UHGV virus genome: UHGV-0203503
Direction: 5' to 3' (one strand)
Length of the DNA: 14,519 nucleotides
Source of the DNA: a virus
Of the stretch, positions 2,099-14,519 are shown in pieces. The position numbers and the translations under genes were made by a program. Each line of letters opens with the position of its first letter. The first letter of the stretch is position 1. Under the pieces are notes generated by a model, which worked only from the letters and a program-made list of their open reading frames with translations, searched no databases and was not told the origin of the DNA.

Positions 2099-3027
2099 GC
2101 TGATTGCCATGCCTCTCGCTGCTTATCAAGTCTTTCCTGCGATGACTCAAGAATAACTGGCTTTCCATCCATTAGCAGTGTTGGTACTTGTGCGCAATGA
2201 CAATTCCTTCGGTTGGCAACTTCACTATAGAACGTGTCGATTTCTTCTGGCGTGTAAAACCTCCCGTGTCTCGCCGCGTGAGTATGGCGGGTCGTGCGCA
2301 TTAATGCCGATTGCCACAGCATTACCGTCTCAATACCTAACTCTTCGCGCGCTTCAATGACTTCTCTCCTGTTTGCCTGCCGCAGCGTTCCGGTGATTTC
2401 TGTTTGCGCCAACTGTTTTGCGTAACTGTGAGACACATCGATACGCTTAACGATGTCGGCTTCAACATCACGAGGATTAGCGCCTCGAGCAATGCCTTCC
2501 ATAATGACAGATGCCAGTTGCTGACGGGAATAATCACTCAATCCGCGCCAGTCTGAATATCCTTGCGTGTACGCTAGCTGGAGTCGATTCAGATAAGGCT
2601 CACTGTAGAGTATCGCGGCAATCGGCCTCTGCTCGGCATAAACCGGAGACAGGCTTGATAGCTCTGAGTTAGCCTTCTGCGTGCCAGCATGATGCGCATC
2701 ACCAATGAACACATTAGCCCACATCCTGCCGTGACCGAAGTCGTCACCTTCAAGCAGAATCTCGTCAATCAGCGCCTGCAACTCATCCATGAAAGTGGCA
2801 GCCCGCGCACTACTAAAATCGTAGAAATACAGACCGCTTGATTCTGCGTTGGTCTGGCTGCTCGGAATGGTGCGAAACAACTCAAGCGCACGAGTCCTGA
2901 GTTGTTTGTATTTGCGCGTTATCACCTTATCCATCTTCGACAGTCGCGTTGCAGCGCCTAACGGGTCGGTCAGGCTCTGCGATATGCGCGGTTGTGGCAA
3001 CCTTGCATTAAACCGGAGTATTTTCAT
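2077..3027 (-). CDS. Phage head morphogenesis / minor capsid protein (Mu F-like, SPP1 gp7 family), ~316 aa
   Basis: Lies immediately downstream of the portal gene on the same strand; C-terminal region ([18 protein letters not shown]...) resembles Mu-F-like proteins from memory. Start set at internal ATG 3027 (GGAAGA RBS) because the track ORF start 3111 lies inside the portal gene. Confidence 0.6.
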
Positions 3028-4420
3028 TTTCGTCTTCCGGCGGCGTGTCTTCGCGATAATTTTCGTCCAGCTCAATCGGCTCCATACCCACCATGCCGCG
3101 AGCCTCATCAACAGTCAGCAATGCAGATTGACCAGCATCAAAGAACGACTTGTTCGCAGTTGCGAGCTTAGACAGCAATTCGGCCTTATCCAGCTCTGAT
3201 GGAGCCAGCAGGTCATCCCACTTAACCTTGTAGCCGTTTGCCGGGGCTTTATCGACAATGCCGAACTGAATCATGCGCTCAACGAACATTGAGATGACGT
3301 AATCAACCCATGTTTCGCGGCGCTGTTTTGCGGTCATCGCCTCCTGCATCTTGTCCTCGTCGCTCGCAAGGCGTCCGGTTTGCTGGCCAAAAATAACGGT
3401 GAACGGAAGTGCCATTGATGCGGCGAACTGGTTGGCAGCAACTTCCCATGTTGGTTTCGGGTCGGCTGGTGTCACAGCGAGAACTTTTGCATCCGCGCCC
3501 ATTGTGAACATGGCTGCGTCAATCCCGGAGTTCAGCGCATCAATGTTCTCATTCATGATGTCGGTAAGCTCTTCAATATCGACACCCATTGACTGAGCTA
3601 GGCTTGCTGGCGTTACGTTATCCTTCGTGTAGTTAACCGCCAGTTGGCGGCTAGCATTCTTCAGGAAGCCCTCTGCGGAGCTACCGGAAACCTTAGCCAT
3701 GTCGATAAGGCTGTTGTAGCCAGCACGCAGCATCGGGATGCCACTGAACATACTACCGTCAAAACTACCCTCAGCCAGAATGATGATGCGGTCTGGGTGA
3801 ATCTGTACGGAACGCTCAGGCTTGCCATTGCTGTCGAAATCTTCCACGGCGCTTTCCTGGTATTCGTACATCTCAGGCATACCGTAGTCTTCGCTGGTTT
3901 CGTCGTTATTCCACGCGCTGACGCGGAGCTGCTCCTCCCATACAGGAATAAAGCGAACGATGGATTTATCTTTAATGCGGCGGGTTTTGGTGATGTCTAC
4001 AGGCTCACTCCACTGCTTGCCGTCGCGGATTTGCAGGATAACGGCGGAATAGCGGTTGATGGCGTTGCGCTTGTCAGCCTCCTTGATGAACGGGTAGGCG
4101 CGCTTCATCATGCCGTTGATGGACAACTCCCACGACGTTGAGTTCTTATCATCCTCTCCATCTTCAACCACTTCAGGGTATTTCTGCCAGCATTTATTAA
4201 TAATGCGGTTAATACCAGCGGCGGCAGCTGGGTGTCGTTCATAGGCATAACGGAACATCTCAGCGGTAATTTCCTGCGGGTAGCCCAGCTCCTTCCACAT
4301 GAACTCACGCTTCTGGTCAAGATTCTTCCCGCCAGCACAAAGCCTCTGCTGCTGAATTGCCCGGTTATTGTTCGCTACGCGGTCGCGTATATAGGCGTTT
4401 AATGCATCAATTTTTGACAT
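3008..4420 (-). CDS. Phage portal protein, 470 aa
   Basis: 470-aa ORF between terminase large subunit and Mu-F-like gene in the conserved order; acidic C-terminus. Assignment is by position and size, not by a recognised motif. Confidence 0.6.
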
Positions 4421-4431
4421 ATGTCACCAAT

Positions 4432-4458
4432 AAAAAATCCCATCACGTTGGATGGGAT
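4432..4458 (-). terminator. Intrinsic terminator (minus strand) between the small-gene cassette and the portal gene
   Basis: Stem ATCCCATC (4437-4444) / GATGGGAT (4451-4458), 6-nt loop, followed on the minus strand by TTTTT (complement of A-run 4432-4436). Sits 11 nt upstream of the portal ATG. Confidence 0.5.
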
Positions 4459-4493
4459 TATAACACGAGCTTGCAGTGGCTATGGTTGATGGC

Positions 4494-4724
4494 TTATTCT
4501 CTCCGTGATGGTATTGCAATCATCGGTTGCGTTTGTCTTTGCATGATAGATAATAGCTCGCCCTTGTAATGTTCTGTAATTTCATTTTGCCCTTTCATGT
4601 AAATCAAGATGGCCTCCTGTTCGGTGACAATTCCTTGCTTAAACAAGGTTATTACTTTCCTTGCCATAGTATCGCAAAGAGATAATTCTTCAAGGTATTG
4701 AATCGGCGTTTCGCAGTTATCCAT
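4494..4724 (-). CDS. Hypothetical protein, 76 aa
   Basis: ATG 4724-4722 overlaps upstream stop (TGATG); track ORF 4494-4727 begins at GTG. Confidence 0.4.
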   Translation of the reverse strand: MDNCETPIQYLEELSLCDTMARKVITLFKQGIVTEQEAILIYMKGQNEITEHYKGELLSIMQRQTQPMIAIPSRRE

Positions 4725-4909
4725 CACTCCACCTTTTCCAGTTTATCAATAACAATATCGAACCCTTGGGATTGGAATATGGCGGCATTCTCGTTCGCCA
4801 TAAATACTTCGAAAGCATGAACTGCGTTTGACGCAGCTATCACCATAGACATTTTTGCGGCAACTTCACCACCACCAAGCACTTCAGCATGAATAAAATA
4901 AACGCTCAT
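4724..4909 (-). CDS. Hypothetical protein, 61 aa
   Basis: ATG 4909-4907 overlaps upstream stop (TGATG); translationally coupled chain. Confidence 0.4.
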   Translation of the reverse strand: MSVYFIHAEVLGGGEVAAKMSMVIAASNAVHAFEVFMANENAAIFQSQGFDIVIDKLEKVE

Positions 4910-5097
4910 CACTCAATCTCCTCACCATTAACCCAGCGTTGCAGGACTTCGATTAGCTGCGCGGCTTGCTGTTTGTCGATGCCAATAGAGTTAACATCAT
5001 CGCCTTCACGGAATGAAGTAAGCATAATGATAGGGTAATCACCAAAACTATGACTAACTTGCAGTTCATAGCAATTTTTTGTTTCACCAATAATCAT
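4909..5097 (-). CDS. Hypothetical protein, 62 aa
   Basis: ATG 5097-5095 preceded by GAGG at 7 nt spacing, inside the repeated element TTGAGGTGATGTGATG. Confidence 0.4.
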   Translation of the reverse strand: MIIGETKNCYELQVSHSFGDYPIIMLTSFREGDDVNSIGIDKQQAAQLIEVLQRWVNGEEIE

Positions 5098-5152
5098 CAC
5101 ATCACCTCAACAAAGTTCACCATCAGTTACCACCAACAACTTCTGCCATAAT

Positions 5153-5356
5153 TTATTTCTGAACATGATTAATCCACCATGCGGCAATTGCTGAGAAAAT
5201 CCACAAGCCGATAACAAGCCTGAAAACCTGCCAATTCAGTATGTCATCAATACTTGGCGCCTCCCATCTAATCAGCCAGATAAGCGGGAAAGCAAGCGCC
5301 AGTGCAATGGTGTACTTAATACCAATAAGAAGAAAATCTCTTAGGAAGCCTCTCAT
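5153..5356 (-). CDS. Small membrane protein, 67 aa, two predicted transmembrane helices
   Basis: Hydrophobic stretches IKYTIALALAFPLIWLI and VFRLVIGLWIFSAIAAWWI; ATG 5356 preceded by the same GAGGTGATGTG element. Confidence 0.45.
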   Translation of the reverse strand: MRGFLRDFLLIGIKYTIALALAFPLIWLIRWEAPSIDDILNWQVFRLVIGLWIFSAIAAWWINHVQK

Positions 5357-5365
5357 CACATCACC

Positions 5366-5560
5366 TCAACCAATCGGAAACCACTTATCAATGACATCAT
5401 GGAATTTTTGCATAACCTTTGCCTGCCAAAATTCAAGCCACTCAAATAAATTTCTTGCACCAGAAAAGAAAACCCACAATAACCACACAGGAACAAAAAA
5501 TGGCAGTAAAGCAATCCTTCCGATCTTGCTTCTGTTGCTCATCCTGCTTATCTTAAGCAT
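5366..5560 (-). CDS. Small membrane protein, 64 aa, one predicted transmembrane helix
   Basis: Hydrophobic stretch IALLPFFVPVWLLWVFF; ATG 5560 directly after upstream stop, preceded by GAGGGTGATGTG. Confidence 0.45.
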   Translation of the reverse strand: MLKISRMSNRSKIGRIALLPFFVPVWLLWVFFSGARNLFEWLEFWQAKVMQKFHDVIDKWFPIG

Positions 5561-5564
5561 CACA

Positions 5565-5771
5565 TCACCCTCTCAAAAAATCATTCTTGCAGCAGATACC
5601 CTTGTACCCGCGCTTCTCCTGCAGATTAACGAAAACATCATCCAGAACGCGCAGCAGGAAATCCTCGTCAATATCATACCGACGGCAAATCACCTCATCA
5701 GGTACACCAGCCCGCGCCAGTGAATAAACCTGCTCTTTTTCCTCCTGTGTGAATCCTGCATAGCTGCGCAT
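5565..5771 (-). CDS. Hypothetical protein, 68 aa (first gene of the minus cassette)
   Basis: ATG 5771 with GGAG at 8 nt spacing; ~24 nt downstream of predicted promoter P2b. Confidence 0.45.
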   Translation of the reverse strand: MRSYAGFTQEEKEQVYSLARAGVPDEVICRRYDIDEDFLLRVLDDVFVNLQEKRGYKGICCKNDFLRG

Positions 5772-5801
5772 AGTGATATCTCCGATAAGCCTGATGTAGA
5801 T

Positions 5802-5830
5802 ATACTATGCGCTCGGTGTAGATTGGTCAA
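5802..5830 (-). promoter_or_regulatory. sigma70-like promoter P2b for the minus six-gene cassette
   Basis: On the minus strand: -35 TTGACC (complement of 5825-5830), 17-nt spacer, -10 TAGTAT (complement of 5802-5807), then ATCTACATCA as in P1. Confidence 0.4.
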
Positions 5831-5868
5831 GTGTGGCGATGAGGATTTATCGACATTAACAGTAAATG

Positions 5869-5897
5869 TTGACGTAGATATGTTGGTGACGTAGAAT
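5869..5897 (+). promoter_or_regulatory. Near-consensus sigma70 promoter P2 for the plus two-gene cassette
   Basis: -35 TTGACG 5869-5874, exactly 17 nt spacer, -10 TAGAAT 5892-5897; divergent from P2b. Confidence 0.5.
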
Positions 5898-5930
5898 CAT
5901 CTTATCGAAAAGAGATTAAGGAACAAGAGA

Positions 5931-6086
5931 ATGTTTGAGACTAAAAAAGAATGCGAAGCGTATATTGCCGAAACTTATGGTGCTGACTACGTTAAATTTG
6001 GCATCGTTACCGCCCAGAAAGTCGGCCCAACAATCGCCAAGATGCTTGGTATTAAAGAAGGTTACTACCCATCAAATGCCTACTAA
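5931..6086 (+). CDS. Small hypothetical protein, 51 aa (below ORF-track cutoff)
   Basis: ATG 5931 preceded by AAGGAA (5918-5923); translation MFETKKECEAYIAETYGADYVKFGIVTAQKVGPTIAKMLGIKEGYYPSNAY; alternative reading to the TTG-initiated 117-aa track ORF. Confidence 0.4.
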   Translation: MFETKKECEAYIAETYGADYVKFGIVTAQKVGPTIAKMLGIKEGYYPSNAY

Positions 6087-6090
6087 TTAC

Positions 6091-6288
6091 ATGCCGAGAT
6101 GCCTTCGTGAAATACCGAAGGCAAAAGTGAAGCCAAGAAATCAAGCAATAAAAGAGGCAAAGATTGAGGCTTTCAATATTGCCATTTCGATAATAAAAGA
6201 GAGATGCAGAGATGAAAAGTCTGAACGCGTTAAATCAAACATGTATGCAGCTGTGAGTGATATATCAAGATTGAGAGATGAGCTTTAA
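6091..6288 (+). CDS. Small hypothetical protein, 65 aa
   Basis: ATG 6091 in the frame of track ORF 5935-6288; basic, helix-like sequence (MPRCLREIPKAKVKPRNQAIKEAKIEAF...); RBS weak, start uncertain (an in-frame ATG at 6076 is also possible). Confidence 0.3.
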   Translation: MPRCLREIPKAKVKPRNQAIKEAKIEAFNIAISIIKERCRDEKSERVKSNMYAAVSDISRLRDEL

Positions 6289-6317
6289 GCCCTCATTTGA
6301 GGGCTTTATTTTTATCG
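6288..6317 (+). terminator. Intrinsic terminator of the plus cassette, lying 7 nt from the terL stop
   Basis: Stem AGCCCTC (6288-6294) / GAGGGCT (6299-6305), loop ATTT, followed by TTATTTTTAT on plus; no T-tract on the minus side. Confidence 0.55.
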
Positions 6318-7736
6318 CCTGCGTCGGATTAGCATTCCGCTTCCGCGCTGGACGATGTGGTCATTTAGTGCGTAACGAACGGCATCCCAGAAGTGGTTAA
6401 ATGCATCGACAATATCAGTCAGCACATTCCCCGTCAGCTTATCGACCTTGTAGCTGTACATCGTTGCTTCATTCTGCATTTCCTTGCATCGCTCGTGGAT
6501 GATGATGCTGTCACATCCGCGCAGCCACGTGACGCCATCCTCAACGCTTCCCGGCCATTTAGTGCACGGGTGAATATCGAATCCAGAGCGCTTGATGTGA
6601 CTGATAGTCTCAGGTCGAGCGCAGTCTGCATACCATCGCGCGCGCTTAGCCATAGGGAATGATTGCTCCATCGCAGCTGGCGTATCGGTAATCTCAAGGC
6701 CAACCTTGCCATACTCTCGATTAATATAAATGTTGCGCCGTCCATCTGGTAATTCTTCGATATAAACCTCAACCATCGCGGTAGGATCGGTGGAAAACCC
6801 GAAGTCCATCCCGAAGTATGGGCCATGCCATTCAGGTTTGACTTCAAAGTCATCAACGCGCCATTTGCCACCGAATACCTGCTCGTCGCTTCGCTTGTTA
6901 AAGGCTCCCATCCAAATCCAGCGGTAACGGTCGTAATCAGTTCGTTTCATTTGCTCCATGGCGGATGGCAGCGGTGTATCCCAGAACCACGGGTTGTCTG
7001 AATAGTTACATTCGATAATCAGAATTTCATCATTTTCGAATATTCCATCAACCATCTGTGAGTGATAAGGAGCAATCCAGTTTTTCCATGTCGGGTCTGT
7101 TTCCTTGTTGGGGTTAAATGAGCACCACAGCTCGGAATTGGCGGCGCGGATGGTAGGCACGAGAATGTCCCAGCTTGTCTGGCTGACGTTCTCCGCTTCC
7201 TCTACCCAACCGACGGTAATGCCAGCAAAGCCCTTAACGGTTGTCTGATTGCGATACAACCCCTTAAAGCGAAACTTTGCTTTGGTCTTCTTGTGTGTTA
7301 TCTCGTTGTTGATAACGCGAAACTCAGCTGACTCGCCTTTGCGGGCTATCTCATCAACAAGCTCCTGATAGCTTGAGTCTTCAATGGATTGCTGAATCTC
7401 ACGGAAGCAGGCAAAGCGGTCGGGTCGAAACCTTGCGCGCTCAGTAAGGATGGTGATAATTGTTCTCGTTTTCCCTGACCCACGCCCACCATAGACAAAC
7501 TTGAAACGTTTGGGGTATAGCAGACGTTCCAGCTTTGCCGGAATGAGGTGGTCGGCATGAGTGGTTGCATTGGTCACATCATCAACGCCAGTAGCGGTCA
7601 TCCTTAACCGCTTGATGACGTTTTTCTGCATGTCGCAGATACCAAAGATAGCTGATTCTGCGACATCTGTCATTGCATCATCAATCTGCGCTTCCAGCTT
7701 TTCTATTGCCAGCGCGGAGAGGCGTTTACGAGCCAT
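6312..7736 (-). CDS. terL: Phage terminase large subunit, ~474 aa
   Basis: Walker A VYGGRGSGKT, Walker B-like ITVGWVEEAE, nuclease-domain-like GMDFGFSTDP. Start set at ATG 7736 (GGAG RBS, 11-nt overlap with the terS stop) rather than track start 7805. Confidence 0.88.
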   Translation of the reverse strand: MARKRLSALAIEKLEAQIDDAMTDVAESAIFGICDMQKNVIKRLRMTATGVDDVTNATTHADHLIPAKLERLLYPKRFKFVYGGRGSGKTRTIITILTERARFRPDRFACFREIQQSIEDSSYQELVDEIARKGESAEFRVINNEITHKKTKAKFRFKGLYRNQTTVKGFAGITVGWVEEAENVSQTSWDILVPTIRAANSELWCSFNPNKETDPTWKNWIAPYHSQMVDGIFENDEILIIECNYSDNPWFWDTPLPSAMEQMKRTDYDRYRWIWMGAFNKRSDEQVFGGKWRVDDFEVKPEWHGPYFGMDFGFSTDPTAMVEVYIEELPDGRRNIYINREYGKVGLEITDTPAAMEQSFPMAKRARWYADCARPETISHIKRSGFDIHPCTKWPGSVEDGVTWLRGCDSIIIHERCKEMQNEATMYSYKVDKLTGNVLTDIVDAFNHFWDAVRYALNDHIVQRGSGMLIRRRR

Positions 7737-8172
7737 TCTGCTGCTCCAGCAATTTCTCCAGTCGTTCAAGGCGCGCGGCGAGTTCGGTAATTTCCTGAAT
7801 ATCAAGGCCAGACTTGATAATGTCTGCCATCATCTTTCCGATGTCGGCAGGAACAACGCCAGTGGATACACCCTTGATGATTGCGTCCATTTTTTGCACC
7901 GGGGTTCCGTCAGCAGGGAAGTCGAACTCCACAGGAGGAGCTACAGGCTTAGGAATTGGGTTGAGCCTCAGGAATATCTCTCGAAGCATACTGGTAGCCT
8001 GAGCGTCTTCGCATGTCATCGCCTTATTGATGTAATAAGTGACGAATTCAATCTCACTCATCGGTGTATTCGCAGCACGAAGCGCCTCAAGCAGCACAGT
8101 GCGATAGCTCTTTCCGCGCGGAGGTGGTTGATTTGTAGATGAAAATTTGTGTTTTGGATTTGGGTTTGCCAT
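7726..8172 (-). CDS. terS: Phage terminase small subunit (probable), 148 aa
   Basis: Immediately upstream of and overlapping terL; basic N-terminus and helical C-terminus; start at ATG 8172 (track ORF extends to 8247 but first ATG is at codon 26). Confidence 0.6.
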   Translation of the reverse strand: MANPNPKHKFSSTNQPPPRGKSYRTVLLEALRAANTPMSEIEFVTYYINKAMTCEDAQATSMLREIFLRLNPIPKPVAPPVEFDFPADGTPVQKMDAIIKGVSTGVVPADIGKMMADIIKSGLDIQEITELAARLERLEKLLEQQNGS

Positions 8173-11065: not shown

Positions 11066-11094
11066 TTGACGTGTACATAATATTCATGTATATT
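11066..11094 (+). promoter_or_regulatory. Near-consensus sigma70 promoter P5 for the plus operon 11120-13784
   Basis: -35 TTGACG 11066-11071, 17-nt spacer, -10 TATATT 11089-11094; ~25 nt leader to AGGAGG and ATG 11120. Confidence 0.5.
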
Positions 11095-11119: not shown

Positions 11120-11398
11120 ATGTACCCAGATGGCACTAAACTAATGTTTGCATACGAGCTGTTATCTTCAATGAAATCTGGTGAACTGGTTGGTATTCAC
11201 TTCGAGAATGAATACTCAAGCGAAATCATCAAAGGAGAAAAGGAAAATTGCCGCTCCGTGGTTATTGATGAAAAGTACCGAATGACGCACAACATGTTCA
11301 GGTCTTACTGCACCAGAATAGCCAATGAACAAGGCATGGTTATAAAAACAAAAACCAGTGAAAGCAAAAAATTCATGTATATCTGGAGAGTCCTGTGA
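11120..11398 (+). CDS. Hypothetical protein, 92 aa
   Basis: AGGAGG 11109-11114 five nt before ATG 11120; stop overlaps the next start. Confidence 0.5.
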   Translation: MYPDGTKLMFAYELLSSMKSGELVGIHFENEYSSEIIKGEKENCRSVVIDEKYRMTHNMFRSYCTRIANEQGMVIKTKTSESKKFMYIWRVL

Positions 11399-13026
11399 TG
11401 ACTGATTCAAAGAAAATCATTGAACTAAAGGAATCTCTGAAGCCAACAGGTAAGCCTGATTCTGGAAATCCACTTGATGAAATTGACGTGCAAGAATTCC
11501 GAGAAGAATACAAAATCCCGCCTGGCTCTCTTGGTGAATTCATGTGCGAGATAGAGAATCATTTTGAAAATCGCGAAGAAGGAGAGGTTTACAGATTGCC
11601 GGGTGCTATCGCTCTTGCTCAAGTGATGGCTGGAAGATACATAATTGGCCCAAGCGCAAAAAACAAGTGTGCCACGGGGACATTTATTGTTGGTCGCTCT
11701 GGCGCAGGTAAGGGTGCTCCATCTGATTTTGTTAAGGCTTACTCAGAGAATCTTGGAATCACTCCACGCGTATCAAAAAGCACAGTAACTTCATTGCGAC
11801 AAATCAAAGAGCGCCTTATTGAGGCTGATGGTTTCTTGCTTTATATCGCAGATGACTGCCCTGAACATCTTCAGGCTTGGTCAGATACGCGATCACCTCT
11901 TGGTGAAACGGCATCATGGTTCAGGACGTCCATTAGTGGCGACTGGTTCCCTGAGTCTCCTGTTGTTACATTGTTTCAGGAGAAGCTGGCCAGCGCTCAA
12001 AACCCGAAGTTAATACTCTCTGCAGCGCAGGCTCAGGGGTGGATGATACCTCGCATCGGCGAATCTGATGGCGCTATAGATTATCGTCGGCTTGCAAAAA
12101 TGAACCATGACATTGGGAGAAGATTAAATCACGCCATGCAATGTTATGACCTGTGCATTAACGAGAAGGGAATACAGAACGTAAGGTTCATTCCGTTCAT
12201 AACCGTGACCCCAGAGCAGGGAATTGCAACAGTACGGAGATGGGAAAAGGATGGTGGCATGGGGAGATCTCTTTTCATTAAAGGTCATGAACACATGCCG
12301 GAACTTAAGAATACTCCTGACATGGAAATCAATAAAACAATAATAAACGAATGGAAACCAAGAATTCCAGGTGGTTTTTTTAATGTGGAATATGCCAATG
12401 ATGGTGTTTCGAAATACTATGAGATGTTGCGCAGGCGCATAGACAAGTCAAGCAACATTCCAGGTGTAATTGGTAGCGTCGGCCCTCGCTCTGCTCAGAT
12501 GGTTATTGAGCTTGCTACTCTTTGTGCATTTGCTGATTTATCATCGCGCAATGGCATGACTCCGCAGGTAAAGGAATGCCATATTGAATGGGCATATGCA
12601 ACCGTAATGAACAGCATGTACGACCTGCGTGATTATCTGGAGGGAGAAGCAGAGTTTGATGGCCTTGAAAACACTGAGTGGGACAACATTGTTATGAAGG
12701 TTAAAAAATGCATTGAATCAAAGGCTTTCGCTGAAAAGCCTTATATTTCAGTTGTCAAAAACAAACTTTGTCGCGACAGAATCAGTAAGATAATTTCCGC
12801 TGCCGATTCAAACTCAATTCAGGTTACGCCGGATAAATTTACTTACGAGGTCATCATTGCGATATCTGAAAACAGGCATTCACCAATAGAACTCGACCCT
12901 GAGAACCCATCAAACATCCGGCTTTCTGGTGGCGGTTCATGGTCTGGATTGCGCATGAATGCATCAGTCAGGAATATCCTGTCATCAGCAATGAAGCGAA
13001 TGAGATTTATGAGGAACTTGAAATGA
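11398..13026 (+). CDS. Large hypothetical protein, 542 aa, with a glycine-rich loop GRSGAGKG and a hhhhDD motif (FLLYIADD); function unknown
   Basis: Longest ORF in window; ATG 11398 overlaps upstream TGA; GGAG 11384-11387. The glycine-rich loop is not a canonical Walker A (K followed by G, not S/T), so no NTPase call is made. Confidence 0.6.
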   Translation: MTDSKKIIELKESLKPTGKPDSGNPLDEIDVQEFREEYKIPPGSLGEFMCEIENHFENREEGEVYRLPGAIALAQVMAGRYIIGPSAKNKCATGTFIVGRSGAGKGAPSDFVKAYSENLGITPRVSKSTVTSLRQIKERLIEADGFLLYIADDCPEHLQAWSDTRSPLGETASWFRTSISGDWFPESPVVTLFQEKLASAQNPKLILSAAQAQGWMIPRIGESDGAIDYRRLAKMNHDIGRRLNHAMQCYDLCINEKGIQNVRFIPFITVTPEQGIATVRRWEKDGGMGRSLFIKGHEHMPELKNTPDMEINKTIINEWKPRIPGGFFNVEYANDGVSKYYEMLRRRIDKSSNIPGVIGSVGPRSAQMVIELATLCAFADLSSRNGMTPQVKECHIEWAYATVMNSMYDLRDYLEGEAEFDGLENTEWDNIVMKVKKCIESKAFAEKPYISVVKNKLCRDRISKIISAADSNSIQVTPDKFTYEVIIAISENRHSPIELDPENPSNIRLSGGGSWSGLRMNASVRNILSSAMKRMRFMRNLK

Positions 13027-13214
13027 GAACAATATCAGGTGAACTTTGTCGCTCAGAAGGTTCATGGCATTTCAGGCCGCATGGTTATTCGACGTGGTTT
13101 TTCTGGAGCGGCATTAACAAAGTATGGATTCGCTCTAATTACCACGTTCTTGATAATTATTGGCACAGATTTTGTGTTGGTTATGTTTATATTTCAAAAT
13201 TGATGATTAAGTGA
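13023..13214 (+). CDS. Small aromatic-rich hypothetical protein, 63 aa
   Basis: ATG 13023-13025 overlaps stop of the 542-aa gene (ATGA); Trp/Tyr/Phe-rich (STWFFWSGINKVWIRSNYHVLDNYWHRF). Confidence 0.35.
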   Translation: MRTISGELCRSEGSWHFRPHGYSTWFFWSGINKVWIRSNYHVLDNYWHRFCVGYVYISKLMIK

Positions 13215-13224
13215 GGGCAAGAAA

Positions 13225-13479
13225 ATGGATGTGAAAGATAAAGTTTTATACGTGATGAGAAAGAGGAAATCCATTGAAAAGACGCTTGGGATTTGTCGAA
13301 AGTTCTCCGTTGCTACGTGGAGTTTACGTCTATCGATGGCGAATGAATTTCCTGATGATGAATGGACAGCGGCAAAGTTACGGAAGGTTCTGATTTCTCT
13401 TTGTAAGGATGGTCTTGTGTCAAAGGATTTAAATAACAGTCGCATCGGTAATTCGGTTTGGATTCTGGAGGAAAACTGA
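13225..13479 (+). CDS. Hypothetical protein, 84 aa, possibly a small winged-helix DNA-binding protein
   Basis: GAGGG 13213-13217 seven nt before ATG 13225; basic N-terminus and helix-turn-like segment; the DNA-binding call is a weak impression. Confidence 0.4.
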   Translation: MDVKDKVLYVMRKRKSIEKTLGICRKFSVATWSLRLSMANEFPDDEWTAAKLRKVLISLCKDGLVSKDLNNSRIGNSVWILEEN

Positions 13480-13784
13480 TGGCTAACCTACAGCTTGCCG
13501 TCAAAGGCGAATACTTCGATGCCATGATTCGTGGAGAGAAAACGGAAGAGTATCGCCTTTTTAATGACTACTGGAAGAGGCGACTTATTAACTTTAAAGA
13601 TAGCGGACAGATTGGAAGGAAGTACGAACGGTTAATTATCACAAAAGGATATCCAAAGAAGGACGATAAATCCAGGCGGATTGACATCCCATATGATGGA
13701 TGGACTGTTAAAACAATCACGCATCCTCACTTCGGTCCTGATCCAGTGAAAGTGTTCGCAATAAAAGTTAACATCAAAGCGTAA
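13479..13784 (+). CDS. ASCH-domain protein, 101 aa
   Basis: Contains the ASCH signature GxKxxExR (IRGEKTEEYR) near the N-terminus; GGAGG 13467-13471 seven nt before ATG 13479, which overlaps the upstream stop; track ORF begins earlier at TTG 13458. Confidence 0.6.
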   Translation: MANLQLAVKGEYFDAMIRGEKTEEYRLFNDYWKRRLINFKDSGQIGRKYERLIITKGYPKKDDKSRRIDIPYDGWTVKTITHPHFGPDPVKVFAIKVNIKA

Positions 13785-13788
13785 CAAA

Positions 13789-13808
13789 AACCCTCCAGAT
13801 GGAGGGTT
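13789..13808. terminator. Bidirectional hairpin terminator between convergent genes
   Basis: Stem AACCCTCC (13789-13796) / GGAGGGTT (13801-13808), loop AGAT; minus-strand transcript is followed by a U-rich tract (UUUGUU), the plus side by a weaker tail. Confidence 0.5.
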
Positions 13809-13812
13809 TACT

Positions 13813-14481
13813 TTACCTGCTTACTGACATTTTCTCTATCAACTCGCCAGCGTCATAAATCTTTCTCCTGATTCTCTTTGCCATCCTGATAGTGTCAGCA
13901 TCATCAGGCAACATCACCGGAAGCCCTGCGTTTTCCGCAGAGCACAGTTCGTCAAATTTATAATTAACTATGCAGCGTAACCGTGCTTTATTCTCATCGC
14001 TAACAGAACGCACTACTTCCCACATGTTTTCCGGCGACCAGCAGCACCAGACATGCGCGCCAGTGAAGTAATGGCATTTCCACGCATCTGCATAATCAGA
14101 CACAAGATAAATAAACTTTCCGTTTTCTTCACCGATTGGGCTTATCGCGCCGCGCGTGAGTTTGCCGTTGATGGCTGAGTCCTTGTTGTATCCTGCTTTG
14201 TAGAATGTTCTGAACGCATCACCATCCATGCCAATGAATGCCACGTTGCACGGCTTCATTGTGTCAGCGTGCACCATCTCAACCGCAATAAGCTCTCCAG
14301 ATTTGCCTCTGACGACGTTAACGTCGCAACCAATACCATTTATCAAAGTCCACTCATTCATCGCGACACTCTTCGTTTTAGACATGATTGCTGCGACTTC
14401 CCGCTCTGTGATGAAGTCATCGTTGTAATTTATCTTCGGCAGTTCCTTCCTGATAGCCTCCAGCTTTTCGCGTGGATTCAT
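13813..14481 (-). CDS. Hypothetical protein, at least 222 aa (true start may lie beyond the window end)
   Basis: Track ORF; the reading frame stays open upstream of the first ATG to the window edge (..PEALEALGGFLN-M..); Cys/Trp-rich segment HVWCCWSPENMW; no recognised family. Confidence 0.45.
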   Translation of the reverse strand: MNPREKLEAIRKELPKINYNDDFITEREVAAIMSKTKSVAMNEWTLINGIGCDVNVVRGKSGELIAVEMVHADTMKPCNVAFIGMDGDAFRTFYKAGYNKDSAINGKLTRGAISPIGEENGKFIYLVSDYADAWKCHYFTGAHVWCCWSPENMWEVVRSVSDENKARLRCIVNYKFDELCSAENAGLPVMLPDDADTIRMAKRIRRKIYDAGELIEKMSVSR

Positions 14482-14519
14482 GTTCAGGAATCCACCAAGC
14501 GCCTCCAGTGCTTCTGGAA

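Follow-up and report, generated by a model that had tools for sequence, protein, structure and literature searches.

The small protein encoded at positions 13479–13784 of the window (the whole stretch of viral DNA that was analysed, 14,519 nucleotides of UHGV virus genome UHGV-0203503) very probably adopts the ASCH-superfamily fold, a PUA-like β-barrel, and the phage family to which it belongs is a divergent, minimal ASCH subfamily missed at threshold by current Pfam models. Our overall reading, to which we assign a probability of about 0.6, is that of a basic, single-domain ASCH protein that binds a base via a pocket formed by K21, E24 and R26. The ASCH label was already known for this protein; the result is an ordinary one, and the earlier reading of the sequence was correct. 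On structural grounds, a routine database label for a gene very common in phages and prophages is warranted despite the failure of the protein to pass the Pfam threshold, and the ASCH flavour can be specified, from the residues present, as carrying the EOLA1/TRIP4-type K/E/R triad rather than being of the YqfB type.

The gene (PHROG 625; plus strand, stop codon included in the coordinates) encodes a stand-alone protein of 101 residues that consists of one single domain. Its start codon, ATG at 13479–13481, overlaps the TGA (13477–13479) of the upstream open reading frame as TGATG, which suggests translational coupling of the two genes. A Shine-Dalgarno sequence, GGAGG (13467–13471), is read 7 nt before the ATG, and the stop codon is TAA (13782–13784); the open reading frame is the one delimited in the earlier note. 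Comparison with three close homologs yielded dN/dS values of 0.03–0.08. We therefore conclude that the gene is genuine and is under purifying selection.

An ASCH signature, GxKxxExR, had been singled out in the earlier note. It is indeed found as GEKTEEYR at residues 19–26 (G19, K21, E24 and R26; codons at 13533–13556, plus strand) and is a K/E/R motif of the TRIP4/EOLA1 type. When all six frames of the window are translated, the pattern G.K..E.R occurs once versus 0.10 occurrences expected from residue shuffles, and a shuffled version of the protein itself carries it with P = 0.0035. Taken by itself, such a motif would be weak evidence; its conservation, judged from aligned sequences, is not weak. 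Among 56 diverse homologs, with 38–70% identity to the window protein, the signature is near-invariant (G19 in 54 of 56, K21 in all 56, E24 and R26 in 55 each). GEKTEEYR aligns in register with 3iuw, PF0470, ZmASCH and residues 11–27 of YqfB. In the ASCH superfamily, the GxKxxExR or GxKxxxxR motif (described in PMC5615036) sits at the α1-β2 junction, and this is also its place in the window protein. The homolog alignment reveals further residues that are invariant specifically in this family: W32 and R35 in the second helix, G57-Y58-P59, G74, H82 and F85.

Profile searches, proposed earlier as a check of the ASCH assignment, gave a divided answer: the window protein itself stayed below the PF04266 threshold, while ASCH recurred among its relatives. 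The Pfam ASCH model matched the window protein with 13.4 bits (E = 0.13) over residues 6–27 only, short of the gathering score of 21.2 bits, which is a curated threshold rather than a biological property of the family. ASCH was the sole Pfam family recurring across the relatives (20 of 32 and 21 of 56 members, best E-values of 0.0017–0.003); among all 88 relatives scanned, the best PF04266 E-value was 0.0017. DUF3850 (PF12961, gathering score 22.9 bits), the next most recurrent family after ASCH, matched 6 of the 56 relatives (best E-values 0.0017–0.0018) and did not match the window protein. All of the YqfB relatives came with a precomputed PF04266 match, versus not one of the 120 relatives listed for the window protein, and a search of NCBIfam with the protein returned no match. 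When the PDB was searched by sequence, the single protein and two full-length profiles of the family retrieved spurious matches only; a profile of the N-terminal 37 residues placed six ASCH chains as the top six of 177,635, but with E-values of 0.13–0.8. When a diverse family alignment was compared by hhalign with YqfB, taken either alone or as a 20-sequence alignment that is shallow (the listed relatives are all >83% identical), only residues 11–27 were aligned to residues 11–27, with an E-value of ca. 0.11, below significance. The PHROG 625 HMM was matched with E = 4.3e-44 (residues 1–100 versus profile positions 1–92 of 98); this PHROG is annotated as function unknown.

The other check proposed earlier, structure prediction, came out in favour of the ASCH assignment. 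The AlphaFold model, a confident one (pLDDT 87, pTM 0.78), consists of a strand-helix-strand N-terminus followed by a barrel. Nine of the top ten PDB matches retrieved with this model by Foldseek were ASCH-family structures, the best E-value being 0.086, without significance. In a library of viral structures, the annotated matches that followed members of the family itself were DUF3850 and ASCH phage proteins. It could be argued that the protein is a small β-barrel unrelated to ASCH with a chance GxKxxExR-like string, since all sequence-based statistics are below significance, convergence is easy among small barrels, and Foldseek TM-scores are only ca. 0.5. We regard this as very improbable. 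The recurrence of the Pfam ASCH family in the relatives, the AlphaFold model, the Foldseek matches and those in the viral structure library agree, and we therefore place the protein in the ASCH superfamily; the earlier assignment to an ASCH, PUA-like fold is upheld by the Pfam matches of the relatives, the predicted fold and the conservation of the motif.

The gene had been described as standing at the end of an operon, and the tight packing of five genes, followed by a hairpin and a convergent primase gene, bears this out. Five plus-strand genes (11120–11398, 11395–13026, 13023–13214, 13225–13479 and 13479–13784) follow a promoter-like site (11066–11094) and are separated by overlaps of 1–4 nt or a 10-nt gap; by this layout, they would form an early replication-module operon with the ASCH gene as its last member. 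The first three encode a 92-aa ORF, a 543-aa helicase/primase-associated protein (PHROG 3022) and a 63-aa ORF. The fourth, which forms a two-gene cassette with the ASCH gene, encodes an 84-aa protein that matches PHROG 2814 (E = 2e-38) and has no Pfam or NCBIfam match. As to the 543-aa protein, it contains no Pfam domain, and its match to PHROG 3022 ("DNA primase", E = 2e-12) is confined to the C-terminal part of that family; its relatives are variously named DNA helicase, DUF3987 or hypothetical, and it is probably the replicative helicase or a primase-associated ATPase of the module.

The GC-rich hairpin, AAACCCTCC-AGAT-GGAGGGTTT (13788–13809, both strands), separates the ASCH gene from the convergent DNA primase gene (PHROG 510; 13813–14519, minus strand), which runs off the end of the window. 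Its folding energy is -16.4 kcal/mol on the plus strand and -18.3 kcal/mol on the minus strand (z = -5.2 and -4.8, respectively), with no shuffled sequence as stable, and it is conserved in phage swi2 (see below). It escaped a consensus terminator scan owing to the tail and loop rules of the scan, and is likely to be a bidirectional intrinsic terminator. A good U-tract is present on the minus strand only (UUUUUGUU; the tail on the plus strand is UUUACUUUA), so that the ASCH operon may be terminated less efficiently than the primase transcript. Elsewhere in the window, head-morphogenesis, portal and large-terminase genes are located on the minus strand, with the replication module at the right end. 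Portal and terminase genes are usually adjacent. Here, the portal gene (3008–4420) and the large-terminase gene (6312–7805) are ca. 1.9 kb apart, and the region between them (4420–6312, minus strand) is occupied by small ORFs of 52–77 aa, such as 4494–4727, 4724–4912, 4909–5100, 5153–5359 and 5565–5771; because of the usual adjacency, this insertion of small genes within the packaging module is unusual. Rfam and tRNA scans of the window returned nothing.

The window comes from a siphophage of the Jersey/K1G-like assemblage, and its best genome match is Escherichia phage vB_EcoS_swi2 (Swiduovirus), with ca. 91% identity over 70% of the window. The two-gene cassette, ca. 560 bp (13225–13784), is missing in swi2, the closest phage. 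Collinearity of the two genomes extends to the stop codon that ends the 63-aa ORF and resumes at the terminator hairpin; in the corresponding swi2 region (ca. 5215–5330), ca. 75 nt of unrelated spacer take the place of the cassette, which is a clean gain/loss polymorphism. The pair formed by the 84-aa and ASCH genes is also present in IME207, at locus L009 and in others. The ASCH gene is accessory, being gained and lost between close relatives; in the Jersey-like phage vB-SeS-01, a 2025 paper reports an ASCH gene that is absent from that phage's closest relatives (PMC11803447). A toxin-antitoxin or defence role was also considered for the cassette and is unsupported: the sole pointer is an insignificant PADLOC match to DruF (E = 0.011) on the 84-aa gene, and PADLOC returned no match for the ASCH protein.

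The family is large, with 921 clusters at 90% identity and, at E-values up to 1e-3, 1,222 representatives at 50% identity. Members occur in 331 phage records, among them those of Jersey-like Salmonella phages, Stx-converting phages, HK022, phage 21, Ralstonia phages and jumbo phages. The RefSeq name is "ASCH domain-containing protein"; "RNA-binding protein" is another label in use, and one nr record of a 100% identical protein is named DUF3850. No experiments on any member were found in the literature; biochemical characterisation of one of them would annotate many genomes, given the 331 phage records and >1,200 clusters at 50% identity.

A conserved gene neighbourhood was looked for and rejected. 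The upstream gene differs by phage: in 79 viral loci it was of the DUF551/Ea22 type in 60 cases, a TraR-type Zn finger gene in 12, Lar in three and HNH in one, and the PHROG 2814 gene is found at this place in the window. The genes downstream vary as well, and we therefore conclude that the ASCH gene has no conserved partner; it behaves as a self-contained early accessory module. The 84-aa PHROG 2814 gene, in particular, does not consistently accompany ASCH in other phages. In E. coli prophages located next to icd, the homolog occupies the early-left accessory region, in the order Gam-RecT-YqaJ-DUF1317-Dam-...-TraR-like Zn finger-ASCH-DUF4222-Xis-Int. In the lambdoid prophage loci L003–L006, the homolog (5001–5327) follows the gene of a phage Dam-type methyltransferase (PF05869) at a distance of ca. 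600 bp and directly precedes DUF4222, Xis and Int.

Among 36 extended relatives, no enzymatic or RNA-binding fusion partner was present; the additions seen were one Ead/Ea22 domain, a weak RVT match and Cys-rich tails. These tails, found in ca. 14 of the 36, are short, Zn-ribbon-like extensions at either the N- or the C-terminus for which Pfam gives no significant class (P0124, P0141, P0153, P0158, P0160, P0172, P0175, P0188, P0198, P0209, P0210, P0233 and P0259). Prophage copies of the gene are often placed directly after the TraR-type Zn finger or Lar genes counted above (e.g., loci L086 and L074). A recurrent association of ASCH with Zn ribbons is possible on these sequences. Two proteins, P0122 (201 aa) and P0121 (267 aa), carry an N-terminal region of the Ead/Ea22-like or DUF551 type joined in frame to ASCH; they probably arose by read-through or fusion of the overlapping genes that usually form a pair in lambdoid prophages.

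By analogy with characterised ASCH proteins, the most likely role of the window protein would be to provide a nucleobase or nucleic-acid binding pocket that is possibly hydrolytic. We propose that the protein works alone, with no conserved partner. A nucleotide or a single-stranded nucleic acid would dock on its predicted positively charged face, and a flipped base would enter the predicted pocket lined by K21, E24 and R26, as in EOLA1 and YqfB, where its modification would be either read or hydrolysed. The same triad is found in the ac4C-binding catalytic pocket of human EOLA1, and W32, R35, Y58, H82 and F85 probably line the same predicted pocket. Because so many invariant polar residues are present in so small a protein, the alignment points to recognition of a specific ligand, and possibly to hydrolysis of an N-acyl or other base modification, rather than to generic RNA coating. 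We lean, by a modest degree, towards the view that the K/E/R pocket binds a nucleobase, nucleotide or nucleic acid; that the protein is itself a hydrolase appears rather unlikely.

Binding without catalysis is also possible, though less likely than not: as a reader, the barrel would bind RNA, single-stranded DNA or a modified base (e.g., m6A or another mark) and regulate or shield a nucleic acid by occupancy early in infection. Most PUA-like domains (YTH, EVE, SRA and many ASCH) are readers (PMC7641849; PMC12191111), the window protein is basic (computed pI 9.76), and both the YqfB catalytic acid Glu74 and the Ser/Thr7 typical of the TRIP4-like clade are absent from it. The proximity of the homolog to a phage Dam methyltransferase gene in E. 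coli prophages points the same way, but may just mirror the general make-up of the early-left region, and the invariant K/E/R triad, which is catalytic in EOLA1, together with H82 and Y58 amounts to more polar conservation than a generic binder needs. At the catalytic end of the range, ASCH domains have been repeatedly linked in prokaryotic operons with toxins or defence systems based on acetyltransferases of the GNAT/NAT10 type (PMC7641849; preprint 10.64898/2026.08.01.741249). A small EOLA1-like amidohydrolase that acts as an "eraser", stripping with K21, E24 and R26 N-acyl groups such as acetyl from bases, nucleotides or acylated tRNA and so countering such host toxins or defence, is, in our estimate, improbable; in a variant of the same idea, the protein would sequester a modified-nucleotide signal. 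Were either true, PHROG 625 would represent an anti-defence family, uncharacterised and widespread among Stx, lambdoid and Jersey-like phages.

Comparison with characterised ASCH proteins bears on the base-binding pocket that we favour. The ASCH active motif comprises K21, R26 and position 24, which is Thr or Ser in the YqfB clade; in E. coli YqfB, an N4-acetylcytidine amidohydrolase, the catalytic residues are Lys21, Thr24 (the nucleophile), Arg26 and Glu74 (the acid) (PMC9599836). K21 and R26 are common to YqfB and the window protein, whereas the nucleophile Thr24 is replaced by Glu (as in 55 of the 56 homologs) and the Glu74-bearing helix is absent from the model. A YqfB-type N4-acylcytidine amidohydrolase was rejected on these grounds. 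In the TRIP4/EOLA1 clade, position 24 is Glu, and K21, E24 and R26 line the acetyl-cytosine pocket; human EOLA1 is a free-ac4C deacetylase, and Ser/Thr7 is called universal in the TRIP4-like clade (preprint 10.64898/2026.08.01.741249). All three triad residues occupy exactly these positions in the window protein and are invariant in its family, so that, as far as sequence can tell, it carries the TRIP4/EOLA1-type triad and not the YqfB set. Position 7, however, is Ala in the window protein, and the five commonest residues at this column among the 56 homologs (A 16, N 14, P 10, H 10 and V 2) include neither Ser nor Thr. EOLA1 is also longer (ca. 158 aa versus ca. 100 aa), and the structural likeness of the window protein to it is weaker than that to prokaryotic minimal ASCH proteins.

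ZmASCH of Zymomonas mobilis shares with the window protein the ASCH barrel, the GxKxxxxR segment and a basic character. It is a Mg-dependent, ssRNA-specific ribonuclease with Tyr47, Lys53 and Ser128 in a basic cleft (PMC5615036), and a similar single-strand-specific RNase could trim or degrade host or phage RNA. ZmASCH is, however, 149 aa long, ca. 50 residues longer than the window protein, with extra helices that form its cleft; no counterparts of Tyr47, Lys53 and Ser128 could be placed in the 101-aa protein, for which the motif segment alone aligns. An unregulated RNase would, moreover, probably be toxic, yet very many resident prophages carry the gene, and we consider an RNase activity highly improbable. 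A modification-dependent restriction enzyme with a PUA-like sensor was likewise rejected: such an enzyme needs a fused nuclease (HNH, PD-DExK, GIY-YIG or PLD), while the window protein is a single domain, is phage-encoded rather than host-encoded and, as noted above, has no counterpart in PADLOC.

The minimal stand-alone ASCH forms are represented by the E. faecalis "activating signal cointegrator" 3iuw, P. furiosus PF0470 (1xne), PF04266 and DUF3850 (PF12961). In comparison with these, the window protein scores under the gathering thresholds of both Pfam models, and in its family strand 2 leads straight into a conserved second helix, YWxxRL (W32 and R35); the family also has GYP and HPHFG motifs of its own. 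The C-terminal helices of larger ASCH proteins are missing in the window protein.
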